A DNA stretch of 11,320 bases from a virus. Positions 3,213-10,789 of this stretch are shown here, piece by piece. Within the stretch, counting starts at the first letter, position 1. The number at the start of each line of letters is the position of its first letter. The notes beneath the pieces were generated by a model. The model was not told the origin of the DNA. It was given only the letters and a program-made list of their open reading frames with translations, and searched no databases. Position numbers and translations under genes: made by a program. The stretch lies in the UHGV virus genome UHGV-0170512; one strand, given 5' to 3'.

Positions 3213-3727
3213 CAGGCTAATGCGCTTTCCTGGTCACGACGAATAACCTGTCCATAGCAGTTATTTGAACGTATGCGGCAATCGCGCCCACCATCTTTTA
3301 TCCACCAGCGAATCGCCTCGCATGCACTCTTACGATCACCGGCATTCAGCCGCTTATAAAACGTCGACGGGAAACACTTACCGGGGCCAATGTTATAGGG
3401 ACAAAATGACGCTATACCCGCTTTCTGTGGTTCGGTCAGTGGTACTTTAATATTGCGCTCCACCCATGCCAGCGCCTTATCACGTTCAATAGCGTTAACC
3501 TGGTCGCATTTTTCCTTCGACAGCTTCATTCCCGGTATGACGGGCTTACCATCCACCATTGTGGCACCACGACAGATGGTCCATATACCGGAACCATCGC
3601 GGTATGCCGTAGTGTGGTTACCCTCTTTTTCATCCAGAAACTGGTCAAGTATTTGAGGAGCAGACGAGCCTGCAGCAATCAGCGCCAGAACGGCAGCCGA
3701 CAGGCCGTATCTGATTTTTGCGTTCAT
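3194..3727 (-). CDS. SAR endolysin (phage lysozyme, T4/P21 R-type, GH24) with N-terminal signal-anchor-release domain
   Basis: 177 aa. N-terminal hydrophobic, Gly/Ala-rich segment [16 protein letters not shown], then catalytic-triad spacing E-x8-D-x5-T in [16 protein letters not shown], parallel to the P21 R lysozyme. Sits in a lysis cassette next to a pinholin. Confidence 0.85.
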
Positions 3728-3790
3728 GGATATTTATCAGGATTTATCGGTTTCTGCCCACGGACAGGTTTATCTGTTCCGGTCAGTGAC

Positions 3791-4141
3791 TTAAGGTTGT
3801 GATTCCGGAGGAGTCTTCAGAGAACCAGTAATTCTTCCTGGTAGCTTTCCTTTGTAGGTTATCCACACATTCTGCGCATCTAAAATTACGGGGCGCTTTT
3901 CCGGCGACTGCTCATCCCCTTCACATAACCCGGCAGCAACATCCAGGAAGACCTGTCTGATGCTCCTTCTGGCTGCTGCCTCATAAAACTCCAGCGCGGC
4001 ACCTTCAACACGGTCCAGCGAGATGTCCAGGTCAAAAATTTCACCGTCAAAGCGTTTTTTGTCCCGTAACGCTACAGTTACCGTAACTTTATTCTCAAAA
4101 TTGCGGATCCCTTTCACAATCAGTTCATAGTTTTGAGTCAT
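3791..4141 (-). CDS. Hypothetical protein between holin and endolysin (YdfR/DUF1327-like by position)
   Basis: 116-aa ORF with good SD (GGAGAG, 8 nt before the ATG at 4141-4139) lying inside the 3' end of the holin gene; 4-nt gap after the holin stop. A small gene (ydfR) occupies the same holin-endolysin slot in the K-12 Qin prophage as I recall; sequence-level family membership is not verified. Confidence 0.55.
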   Translation of the reverse strand: MTQNYELIVKGIRNFENKVTVTVALRDKKRFDGEIFDLDISLDRVEGAALEFYEAAARRSIRQVFLDVAAGLCEGDEQSPEKRPVILDAQNVWITYKGKLPGRITGSLKTPPESQP

Positions 4142-4145
4142 TGAA

Positions 4146-4361
4146 TTACTCTCCCCGTGCCGCCTTACGACGGTCCTCTCTGATTTTGAAATACAGGTTA
4201 GTCAGATATGTCAGCAGCCCAAACAGCAGACTTCCCAGCACGCCTATTGCCGCCCACTGAGACGGGGAAACCCTGTCCAGCAACTGCAGGAACCAGTAGC
4301 CCGTTCCCACCGCTGACGTGGTGTATGACACACCTGTTGTGATTTTTTCCATCTGGTCCAT
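4146..4361 (-). CDS. Pinholin, phage 21 S21-like (class II holin) with dual-start motif
   Basis: Track ORF 4146..4466 trimmed to the internal start [10 protein letters not shown]. The C-terminal two thirds, [51 protein letters not shown], are near-identical to P21 S21 as I recall it; 71 aa. Met1 and Met4 (MDQM) resemble the S21 antiholin/holin dual start. Confidence 0.85.
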
Positions 4362-4510: not shown

Positions 4511-4869
4511 TTATGATGATGCCGGTGCATTTATCTCCAGCGCCAGACTTTCTATCTCAACGCCATACGTTGCATTTTTGGTAATATCCGTCAGCGTCAG
4601 TGCATTTAGTCCCACTGCCAGACTGTCTTTTATGGCCTGGAATGCCGGGCCAGTACGATGACGTAGTATCACTCCGGCTCAGTTGCACCACTGACCACCA
4701 CATCACCTTCTGCTGCAATCGCCTGCATCAGGGTATAAGGGGTTATGGCCACCGGACTACCAAACGGCTGCCAGCCCTCTTTCAGTTTATGTGTCAGCTT
4801 TTCCGCAAGATCTGACGGCGGCGCCGCCCTGACAACATCATAGTGTTTAAATGCCATGGTTCTTTCCAC
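4511..4869 (-). pseudogene. DUF1737-like gene (NanS-p N-terminal-domain-like), apparently frameshifted/truncated
   Basis: Track ORF 4669..4869 (66 aa, MERTMAFKHYDVVRAAPPSDLAEKL...) stops at 4669-4671; a second stop-free frame of 55 codons ([55 protein letters not shown]) opens just after a stop at 4679-4681 and runs to 4511, overlapping the first frame in 4669-4678. Consistent with a single indel. The first Met may be the third residue (MAFKHYDVV). Confidence 0.35.
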
Positions 4870-5117
4870 TATCTGAAAAATAATTCTTTAAAATACCTGA
4901 CATGTAATACAGAAAAAACACAAAACTATACCTTAAATAAAAACCTGATTATCAAGCAGATATGCATGGATAAACTACAAGACGAGATATAAACCACCCT
5001 GCATTTAAATAAACAATAAACAACATCAGAAAAATAATTCTGCTCTATGGTTTACATTCAAAAATATCATTTATACTTTTCAGGACATCACCAGCAAGGC
5101 ATAAACAAGGAAACCAA

Positions 5118-5453
5118 ATGAAGTGGATTGTGATTGATACAGTTATCCAGCCATCATGCGGAATATCTTTTTCAGTCATATGGAGTAAAATAAAATTAAT
5201 AATCTGGTATCAATCGGATGCTTTCTTACCTCCTGAAAGTATATTTACACTGACTCACACAGGCATCATGCTCAATAACAAAGTGCTACCTGTAACCATT
5301 TACAACGTAGTACCATTCAATAAAACATTCTGGAATTTAATCAAAAACAGCCAGGAATGCCCTACAAATACAGATAACGTATTGAATGAATGCTTTAATA
5401 ACCGTTGCACTCTGCAAATATGTCCTTATGGACTAAAACAACAAAGTCCATAA
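5118..5453 (+). CDS. Hypothetical 111-aa protein, AT-rich convergent moron ORF
   Basis: Only credible plus-strand ORF in the window. Strong SD AAGGAA 7 nt upstream of the ATG at 5118, preceded by a ~250 bp very AT-rich stretch (4870-5117). Visibly lower GC than the phage backbone; 5 Cys; no recognisable family. Confidence 0.45.
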
Positions 5454-5487
5454 GGAGTTTACTCACATCTGACAAAATCAATATAAA

Positions 5488-5509
5488 CAGCCCCTCCGGA
5501 GAGGGGCTG
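5488..5509 (-). terminator. GC hairpin, likely Rho-independent terminator for minus-strand transcription (possibly also stops the convergent plus-strand ORF)
   Basis: CAGCCCCTC-CGGA-GAGGGGCTG, 9-bp perfect stem; on the minus strand it is followed by TTTATATTGATTTTG. On the plus strand it sits 35 nt after the 5118..5453 stop but has no U-tract. Confidence 0.4.
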
Positions 5510-5900
5510 GAGAGTGGCGCTATGTGCCATTGCATGGTGCCGGGTGCCTCCCGGTGAATTCAGTACCAGCACCTGAATCCGCGATTATCCCATATACCTA
5601 CTCGCTGATTGCCCCTCCGCACAGGGGGATTCACCATGCCAGTTTCTTTTAACAAACTCCCCGCAAACCAGACAACAGTCAACCGCCTGAATTGTGAAGT
5701 ATTTAAAAATTTCTCCCGCTAACTGATACCCGGCTAACAGTCTGGCGTTTTCTTTTTCAGCAACGGAAAAGCAACAACCACCACACCTGCCACCAGCACA
5801 CCGTCAGCCAGCACTGACATTATCCGGCTGCTGCAATGCCATTCACAAAAACAGTAAGCAATCACTTTTTACCGTAACAGGTGATAATCCAGATATGTAT

Positions 5901-6227
5901 CTACCCCAGATGAGTAATCCGAAGTTCATCCATACCACAGGTCCTGGCTATTCTGTTGTACTCCTGAACAAGAGCAAATAATTCTGAATTAGCAACCATG
6001 AACTCATCGCTAACCCTCTGTATAGCATCACTATTCAGAATAATAACGTCTCTTCCCGAAAGACGATCAGGAGTACAAAACAAAACTGTCAAACGGCTGA
6101 AGGCCTTTGCTCGTGCTGCATTGACTATATCAATACGCTGCCTAAGGATGAAACACCCCGACGCCTCATCAATATTCACTCTACCCACACCATATGAATG
6201 ATAAATATTTAATGCTGAAAAAACCAT
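5901..6227 (-). CDS. Hypothetical protein (108 aa from the internal ATG); doubtful
   Basis: Track ORF 5901..6254 starts at TTG; the first ATG is at 6227-6225 (MVFSALNIYH...) with a weak SD. No recognisable motifs; immediately downstream of the tRNA cluster. Confidence 0.25.
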   Translation of the reverse strand: MVFSALNIYHSYGVGRVNIDEASGCFILRQRIDIVNAARAKAFSRLTVLFCTPDRLSGRDVIILNSDAIQRVSDEFMVANSELFALVQEYNRIARTCGMDELRITHLG

Positions 6228-6364
6228 TAGACCGTATAACAAACACTCAATCAATACTTAACAGAACTTTTATTTTTGACAAACATATAATATTTTCAAC
6301 AATATCCTGAGCCAGGTATATTCCAGTATAAGGCTCTGCCGGAAGGAATCTGGAAGAATGAATA

Positions 6365-10300: not shown

Positions 10301-10329
10301 GGAAAAAACAAAACCCGCCGAAGCGGGTT
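10301..10329 (-). terminator. Rho-independent terminator downstream of hok
   Basis: Minus strand AACCCGC-TTCG-GCGGGTT followed by TTGTTTTTTCC; about 70 nt after the hok stop. Confidence 0.55.
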
Positions 10330-10397
10330 AAGTGCGGGTGCGTTGAGGATGCCTGACACATCAGAGGTGGCGAGGGATTTCTCCCCCGCCTGGTCTC

Positions 10398-10553
10398 TTA
10401 CTCCTCAGGTTCGTAAGCTGTGAAGACAGCGACCTCCGTCTGGCCGGTTCGGATTCGTACCTCGCAGAGGTCTTTCCTCGTTACCAGTGCCGTCACTATG
10501 ACGGTTAAACAGATGACGATCAGGGCGATTAACATCGCCTTTTGCTGCTTCAT
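10398..10553 (-). CDS. hok: Hok-family type I toxin (HokD/RelF-like), 51 aa
   Basis: Hand-translated, below the ORF-track size cutoff: MKQQKAMLIALIVICLTVIVTALVTRKDLCEVRIRTGQTEVAVFTAYEPEE. Single TM segment and Hok/Gef signature; SD AGGAGAAG 6 nt upstream of the ATG. Confidence 0.85.
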   Translation of the reverse strand: MKQQKAMLIALIVICLTVIVTALVTRKDLCEVRIRTGQTEVAVFTAYEPEE

Positions 10554-10789
10554 AGCCTGCTTCTCCTTGACCTTTCGGTCCGTAAGAGGCTAATCTCTAT
10601 GTGTCGCATAGATATGGCCTCAGATTAATGTTAAGCGTCTTGCAGGACGCGTAATGTTAACTGGGGCTTTTCTCTATCTGCCTTTTGGTGTTCATGCCTG
10701 AGGCAGATAGCCTCAAGCACCCGCAGCAATTCTACTTAACTCACGTCACCTCGCCAATATGAAATCAATCAGAAAGGTGATCCATAAAA

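Follow-up and report, generated by a model that had tools for sequence, protein, structure and literature searches.

The stx-position cargo interval of a lambdoid prophage late region carries iraL, an STnc100-family RNA and decayed tciA/tciB genes

Identity of the cargo interval

We analysed an 11,320-nt stretch of the virus genome UHGV-0170512 (the window; all coordinates are window positions), which contains a lambdoid late region resembling that of Shiga toxin (Stx) phages, with the late operon on the minus strand. The interval in question, 6360-4870, lies between three tRNA genes and an open reading frame (ORF) with a DUF1737 domain, and had been predicted to hold unknown genes in place of the toxin. 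We are highly confident that it is instead a variable moron region in the late operon of an extraintestinal pathogenic Escherichia coli (ExPEC) lambdoid prophage of the CFT073 potB-island type, in which three elements that work or probably work are pieced together with two wrecks. Its cargo is already known (IraL, STnc100, DUF3927) and partly decayed.

By megablast, CFT073, clone D, ZH063 and numerous further ExPEC strains match the interval at 100% identity over its full 1,491 nt, so that it aligns end to end with a common and annotated prophage segment. A megablast survey of 5,426 complete E. coli genomes found at least 80% of the interval in 863 of them and some part of it in 2,860. The RefSeq features within the segment are an 'anti-adapter protein IraM', a 'DUF3927 family protein' and a partial hypothetical pseudogene. 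Decayed remnants make up another part of the locus: tciB (DUF3927) is frameshifted, tciA is reduced to a 28-nt relic, and nanS-p has an internal deletion. The claim that the cargo genes are undescribed does not hold, since a study of 2014 (PMC4045071) characterised the principal gene, iraL, experimentally, and the GC-rich segment belongs to a family listed in Rfam, STnc100. The proposal of an undescribed payload at the toxin slot therefore fails: the segment is among the commonest E. coli prophage fragments, and its main gene has a published function.

The anti-adaptor gene iraL and its promoter

The gene iraL (5118-5453, plus strand) is convergent with the late operon and encodes the 111-aa RssB anti-adaptor IraL. 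It is the convergent plus-strand ORF with a strong ribosome-binding site that had been noticed from the sequence, the site being the Shine-Dalgarno sequence AAGGAA at 5106-5111. The protein is residue-identical to IraL of CFT073 (WP_000871291.1) and scores 162 bits over residues 1-110 against the IraM subfamily model NF007393 of NCBIfam (cut-off 121). The crystallised IraM(1-78) (PDB 8TWD chain A, E = 9e-32) gives a gap-free alignment with residues 1-78, and this alignment covers, as a sequence-level test, the PmrD-like beta-barrel core that contacts RssB.

A screen for effectors of RpoS turned up IraL of CFT073 (Hryckowian et al. 2014, mBio; PMC4045071). The protein raises the level and the stability of RpoS in logarithmic growth and binds RssB's N-terminal domain in a two-hybrid assay, deletion and complementation of iraL in CFT073 alter RpoS levels and stability, and the gene is enriched in uropathogenic E. 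coli (UPEC) and Shigella (PMC4045071). A fur mutant of CFT073 has raised IraL as well (PMC7157518). Binding of RssB and stabilisation of RpoS have thus been shown in CFT073 for the identical protein and, by this identity, would be expected here. The predicted expression of cargo in the lysogen holds for at least one gene, iraL, going by the same CFT073 work (PMC4045071).

The closest characterised relative outside this locus is IraM of K-12, a member of the same family to which IraL is 62% identical over 107 aa; both proteins inhibit RssB. The IraM-RssB structure paper treats IraL as an IraM paralog (PMC10844676), and RssC of Salmonella is grouped with both as an RssB anti-adaptor family. Limitation of Mg2+ induces IraM, which touches both domains of RssB; IraL works in log phase and contacts the N-terminal domain only (PMC4045071, PMC10844676). 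The idea that this slot survives in fossil form at iraM in K-12 was rejected, since the likeness does not extend beyond the coding sequence (71% nt identity), the K-12 locus lacks STnc100 and its flanks are unrelated.

The AT-rich, promoter-like stretch that had drawn attention (27-31% GC at 4850-5150) is the mapped iraL promoter region, because the published start of the transcript falls within it. The 5'-RACE start ACATCACCAGCAAGGCATAAACAAGGAAACCA (quoted as ACATCACCAGCAAGG...; PMC4045071) is found at 5085, 33 nt 5' of the ATG, and is preceded by the -10 element TATACT (5072-5077) and a -35-like TTTACA (5051-5056). Promoter and 5' untranslated region together occupy 4870-5117 on the plus strand at 27-31% GC. 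Judged from the start-site sequence and the TATACT element, iraL would have its own promoter active in the lysogen. Gene and promoter occur together in 1,446 of the 5,426 complete genomes, with iraL intact in 1,440, and the promoter is at least 96% conserved among iraL-positive strains (PMC4045071).

The most likely mechanism is the one shown experimentally for the identical CFT073 sequence (PMC4045071). In an exponentially growing lysogen, a sigma-70 promoter of its own would drive iraL against the direction of late transcription. IraL would then occupy the N-terminal receiver domain of the adaptor RssB, which could no longer deliver RpoS to ClpXP, so that RpoS would be stabilised in exponential growth.

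With respect to the slot, a second interval, bounded by STnc100 and the remnant of nanS-p (DUF1737), houses iraL. One of two small novelties of the locus is the convergent placement of iraL inside the late operon, which PMC4045071 does not discuss. CFT073 shares the same 111-aa protein, the same promoter and start-site sequence and the same flanking 1.5 kb with no sequence difference, whereas the surroundings differ: CFT073 has IS200C at the place of a 239-aa ORF of the window, and its outer flanks are unlike, which makes it a separate mosaic. iraL is thus a late-region moron of lambdoid prophages, and the STnc100 element next to it is the one found after stx2 in Stx phages. In the latter, StxS, an RNA from the pR'-tR' region, activates RpoS (PMC7547250). 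By analogy, RpoS would be raised by a phage-borne factor in both cases, as with IraL in ExPEC, which suggests that tuning of the host general stress response may be a recurrent theme of lysogenic conversion at this locus.

STnc100 and its terminator

The hairpin-rich GC segment of the original prediction (5479-5668, ~54% GC) is indeed structured, and it is an STnc100-family small RNA (sRNA) gene on the minus strand (5668-5479). It matches Rfam RF02076 over the full model (1-206 of 206) with 132.4 bits against a gathering score of 47 (E = 1.2e-29). The segment folds with a minimum free energy of -74.6 kcal/mol (z = -2.3), and the core helices are conserved in an alignment of six phage copies. 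The relative position of the element, in the late region downstream of the stx slot and upstream of nanS-p, is alike in 933W, phi296, 640R1 and mEp460. For example, in 933W it lies 75 nt 3' of stxB2, with AsxR on the opposite strand coming next and nanS-p after that, while in phi296 it lies between the tRNAs and NanS in a slot that is otherwise empty. The 933W copy reaches 208 bits as opposed to 132 here, and the two differ in the internal variable region and at the 5' end.

In the literature, a position downstream of stx2 and a presence in outer-membrane vesicles have been reported for STnc100 (PMC12370729). It overlaps EcOnc27/sRNA103 of enterohaemorrhagic E. coli (EHEC) O157:H7, an sRNA reported to be expressed as a discrete, Hfq-associated RNA (PMC12711010), and it has been described as related to PasD (bioRxiv 10.64898/2026.05.13.724894). 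Targets considered for the Stx-phage copies, such as complementarity to stxB (PMC12370729), are inapplicable here because stx is absent. The RNA would be made within, or processed from, minus-strand transcription.

NCBI's annotation pipeline PGAP places a partial 'hypothetical protein' pseudogene at 5524-5649 on the plus strand, wholly antisense inside STnc100, and a 70-aa version is annotated in vB_EcoS-640R1. We regard this entry as spurious on account of its antisense position and of the absence of any family match in Pfam and NCBIfam.

Between the convergent STnc100 and iraL genes lies the strong hairpin noticed earlier (5488-5509; 9 bp, 7 of them GC), followed on the minus strand by TTTATATTGA. 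It corresponds to the 3' stem in the Rfam STnc100 alignment and is the STnc100 terminator. Because the T-run is on the minus strand only, the hairpin is a poor terminator for convergent iraL. Transcripts of iraL may consequently run past it, antisense to STnc100, and late transcripts that pass it would be antisense to iraL.

It has to be considered whether this convergent arrangement of iraL, STnc100 and the late operon is a regulatory device. On induction, Q-antiterminated late transcription would run antisense over iraL and could silence it, so that IraL and the stabilisation of RpoS would be switched off, while read-through from iraL would run antisense into STnc100. The geometry can be read directly from the sequence (iraL ends at 5453, before the one-sided hairpin and the 3' end of STnc100), and CFT073 and 640R1 likewise have iraL pointing against the late operon. 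However, opposite-strand morons such as bor are common in lambdoid phages without having such a role. We consider a device of this kind rather unlikely; in any case it would supplement the explanation of the interval as a moron region with known cargo and not replace it.

Decay of tciA, tciB and nanS-p

Immediately upstream of STnc100 in the direction of late transcription, the slot holds the remains of two genes known from JLK-2012. There, the same slot from the tRNAs to STnc100 carries tciA (TerB family, PF05099, 60.2 bits) and tciB (DUF3927, 54 aa), which are translationally coupled and are followed by the STnc100 region and yjhS/nanS-p. The window is 91% identical to this arrangement over 5833-5660, from the middle of tciB onward, a stretch that takes in the 3' two-thirds of tciB and the spacer downstream. 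In contrast to JLK-2012, tciA is cut down to 28 nt comprising its 3' end and the start of tciB (5893-5866, minus strand; 24/28 identical and collinear by blastn against JLK-2012), tciB lacks its start codon and first transmembrane segment, and ORF92, which is absent from JLK-2012, is present.

The damage to tciB could be traced in detail. The native GTG start is changed to GTT at 5878-5876, and a net 20-nt deletion shifts the frame, leaving VTVK...LLFL remnants in another frame; because of this shift, tciB has lost the N-terminal hydrophobic, first transmembrane segment, which is conserved between JLK-2012 and a distant prophage (L008). What remains is a DUF3927/TciB-like residual ORF of 43 aa (5865-5734, minus strand), which scores 95.6 bits against Pfam DUF3927 (threshold 25) and 49 bits against phrog_1470 ('TciB-like') and is the ORF labelled 'DUF3927 family protein' by RefSeq. 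This ORF is most likely a remnant. The gene tciA is intact in both JLK-2012 and L008; in the window we found neither an adjacent tciA gene nor an intact tciB. A literature search on 'TciB' returned nothing relevant.

The nanS-p gene on the other side of the interval has been internally deleted (4511-4869, minus strand). It consists of the DUF1737 fragment (4669-4869) and a 53-aa ORF (4511-4672), which matches positions 582-632 of the 634 in phrog_143, that is, the last ~50 residues of NanS-p-like proteins. Since only these residues and the N-terminal DUF1737 part remain, the esterase domain is gone. The DUF1737 gene is likewise an incomplete pseudogene in the RefSeq annotation of CFT073.

ORF92, a small gene at the stx position

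The 108-aa ORF that had been called doubtful exists on the minus strand (5901-6254 in its longest form, 117 aa from TTG 6254; 108 aa from the in-frame ATG 6227), and it is probably a real, uncharacterised small protein-coding gene at the exact stx position. Its conserved core is shorter, 92 aa from GTG 6179 (5901-6179), because divergent homologs of 91-95 aa and 32-40% identity begin at the MNIDE position that corresponds to this codon. We therefore refer to the gene as ORF92. It matches phrog_2873 over positions 1-108 of 108 with 230.7 bits. Homologs at 55-64% identity conserve the motif FSRLTVLFCTPDR, which can still be recognised at 32-40%, and dN/dS is 0.35 in frame as opposed to 1.16 and 0.92 in the other frames (a single pair, with a homolog of 65% nt identity). 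A confident AlphaFold2 model (predicted local distance difference test score 89.3, predicted template modelling score 0.76) consists of two long antiparallel helices, 3-33 and 50-81.

The family is small. A word-indexed search of 5.8 billion protein clusters gave 17 relatives, and an exhaustive search of 1.84 billion cluster representatives gave 21 clusters at E <= 1e-3, among them two long repetitive proteins (P0030 and P0032) that we judged spurious. Comparisons with Pfam, NCBIfam and PADLOC assigned ORF92 to no family, and the PADLOC defence models gave zero matches for DUF3927 and IraL as well; TciA of JLK-2012 matched PDC-S48 only, within 14-15 bits. After these profile and BLAST comparisons of the ORFs of the interval, in which IraL and DUF3927 turned out to be known, ORF92 is the only truly uncharacterised element of the segment.

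The segment with ORF92 and the tciB remnant occurs in 1,183-1,388 complete E. coli genomes. ORF92 is not annotated in CFT073, nor does it appear among the features under the match in 12 sampled genomes that cover it. A gene that is unannotated in every record examined and yet present in ~1,200 complete genomes is the other small novelty of the locus.

Homologs of ORF92 were also found in more distant surroundings. In L008, a homolog of 38% identity occupies a place between Q and the holins, with a TerB-like gene and then a DUF3927 gene after it, and the pairing of ORF92 with DUF3927 is syntenic in loci L008-L011. This synteny in distant prophages indicates that ORF92, tciA and tciB form a recurring neighbourhood. 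In a further locus, L007 (164-1261), a short metagenomic contig, a 55%-identical homolog lies directly 3' of an AraC-family gene (HTH_18, 50 bits), which is not a late-region context; an ORF92-DUF3927 pair was rejected there, since the 45-aa neighbour is not DUF3927-like.

Expression of ORF92 would presumably depend on the late transcript or on a weak promoter nearby. We tentatively suggest that it is a genuine stx-position moron that, together with TciA and TciB, may form an undescribed small-protein module acting on the envelope or stress physiology of the lysogen or on superinfecting phage, of which it would be the sole survivor here. A related idea, put forward equally tentatively, is that the geometry of iraL and the late transcript may couple induction to a shut-off of RpoS stabilisation.

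A stronger version of the first idea is that the slot does carry an undescribed payload, the key element being a new effector expressed through the late transcript on induction or from its own lysogen promoter. ORF92 would be the sole candidate. It lies exactly where stxAB sits in 933W, it appears to be under purifying selection in the one pair compared, it belongs to no Pfam, NCBIfam or PADLOC family, it has escaped annotation in CFT073 in spite of its wide distribution, and it is preceded by an AT-rich stretch with a promoter-like site, TTGAAA-16-AAAAAT. However, the family is already catalogued as phrog_2873 and is tiny, the protein is a predicted 92-aa helical hairpin in which the model reveals neither enzymatic or toxin-like features nor a signal peptide, and the remainder of the 1.5 kb is fully explained by known elements. 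It thus seems improbable that a new effector is the key element of the interval.

Comparison with Stx phages and exchange of cargo

The predicted gene order of Q, tR', tRNAs, cargo, DUF1737, S, R and Rz is present in the window, and the Stx-phage-like synteny also applies to 933W, phi296 and JLK-2012. The listing had omitted one gene, the 239-aa ORF between tR' and the tRNAs. With the stx2AB locus of 933W, the window shares the backbone Q - pR'/tR' - ileZ-argN-argO - cargo - STnc100 - nanS-p (DUF1737) - S - R - Rz. Unlike 933W, it has no StxA or StxB, its Q is of another type (273 aa, PF03589), ORF92 and the tciA/tciB relics take the place of stxAB, iraL is inserted after STnc100, AsxR is missing and nanS-p is gutted. 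The absence of Stx-like sequence, previously judged by eye, was borne out by tblastn with Stx2A and Stx2B of 933W, which gave no match in 4870-6360 and chance-level matches elsewhere in the window.

Since 933W has the order stxB2, 75 nt, STnc100 and nanS-p, the strict equivalent of stxAB is the part from the tRNAs to STnc100, 6364-5669. This part contains the decayed tciB/DUF3927, the 28-nt tciA relic and ORF92. The interval is thus a moron or cargo locus in a Stx-phage-like late region, as had been proposed, but only 6364-5669 occupies the stx position.

The two parts of the slot, the ORF92/tciB side and the iraL side, move independently, as judged from deposited phage genomes. mEp460 shares 6360-5531 at 99% (ORF92, DUF3927 and most of STnc100), then diverges and has no iraL; vB_EcoS-640R1 and its relatives match 5697-4871 at 96.6%, a stretch that comprises STnc100, iraL, the AT-rich region and the start of DUF1737. 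The slot of vB_EcoS-640R1 contains two STnc100 copies (3561-3754 and 4030-4218 of locus L003), and the homology of mEp460 to the window ends inside the 3' part of STnc100 (4693-4883 of locus L002). The double copy and the break within the element suggest that STnc100 may be a conserved joint at which cargo modules recombine between phages. To regard STnc100 as the conserved element around which cargo modules are swapped is a modestly useful point. An empty slot is seen in IHE3034, which has the same Q and 239-aa ORF, other tRNAs and the holin directly after them.

Evidence against the assignment and the inert-debris alternative

Several observations weigh against the interpretation of the interval as a patchwork of known and probably functional elements in an ExPEC prophage. 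The whole window is a mosaic, and no complete E. coli genome is collinear with it over more than 75%. The function of STnc100 is only hypothesised in the literature. A Foldseek search of the ORF92 model against PDB and BFVD gave no match at E <= 0.001, and what it did return were generic helical hairpins (the EmrA hairpin, prefoldin, TraM and designed bundles), none of them significant. Promoter-like sites in the region number 7, compared with 8.3 in shuffled sequence, and we claim none for ORF92 or STnc100. Finally, the 43-aa DUF3927 ORF exceeds in Pfam score the full-length TciB (71.7 bits); because of this higher score, the short form, which is common, might still be made. As regards the mosaic structure, each block of the window (Q with the 239-aa ORF, the cargo, the lysis genes) is 96-100% identical to some ExPEC prophage.

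A reading of the interval as nothing but inert remains of a defective prophage, with iraL, STnc100 and ORF92 as hitch-hiking relics that serve no present purpose in this host, would fit the decay of three adjacent genes (tciA, tciB and nanS-p) and the 95-100% identity among genomes, which indicates recent spread and is by itself no proof of selection, but it is hardly credible, as it is already refuted for iraL by the effect of its deletion and complementation on RpoS in CFT073, and as the iraL promoter is conserved, the gene is intact in 1,440 genomes, and the same elements occur in the deposited phage genomes mEp460 and vB_EcoS-640R1.

Neighbouring features of the late region

Upstream of the cargo, the late antiterminator Q (8517-7696, minus strand, 273 aa) matches Pfam PF03589 (Antiterm) with 174.5 bits and is labelled 'antitermination protein' in the annotation of CFT073 and IHE3034. 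A terminator scan found an intrinsic terminator 3' of Q (7615-7596, minus strand) with a 7-bp stem containing 5 GC pairs, followed by TTTTATAT; from its position, this hairpin probably has the role of tR'.

The 239-aa multi-transmembrane ORF (7456-6737, minus strand) lies between this tR'-like terminator and the tRNAs and is the first gene of the late transcript. It belongs to phrog_1521, for which no function is assigned; copies with 100% identity, labelled 'hypothetical', occur in IHE3034, UPEC 26-1 and others. Against PADLOC it matched AbiC with 14.8 bits only, which is not significant. The three tRNA genes that follow (6614-6365, minus strand; ARAGORN and Rfam tRNA) have the anticodons CAT (Ile2/ileZ-type), TCG (Arg) and TCT (Arg). 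A matching trio is found as ileZ-argN-argO in 933W and as tRNA-Ile/Arg/Arg in the CFT073 annotation.

On the other side of the cargo, the DUF1737 ORF (4869-4669, minus strand, 66 aa; Pfam DUF1737, 62.2 bits) is followed on the same strand by a P21-type holin, a YdfR/DUF1327 protein, a lysozyme and Rz, in this order. We could also observe a weak isrK-like match at 10308-10389 (minus strand; 27 bits, under the gathering score). It adjoins a hok/sok type I toxin-antitoxin locus (10398-10722, minus strand), which consists of sok (108 bits) and a 51-aa Hok-like ORF and lies upstream of the DUF968-RusA-Q block.

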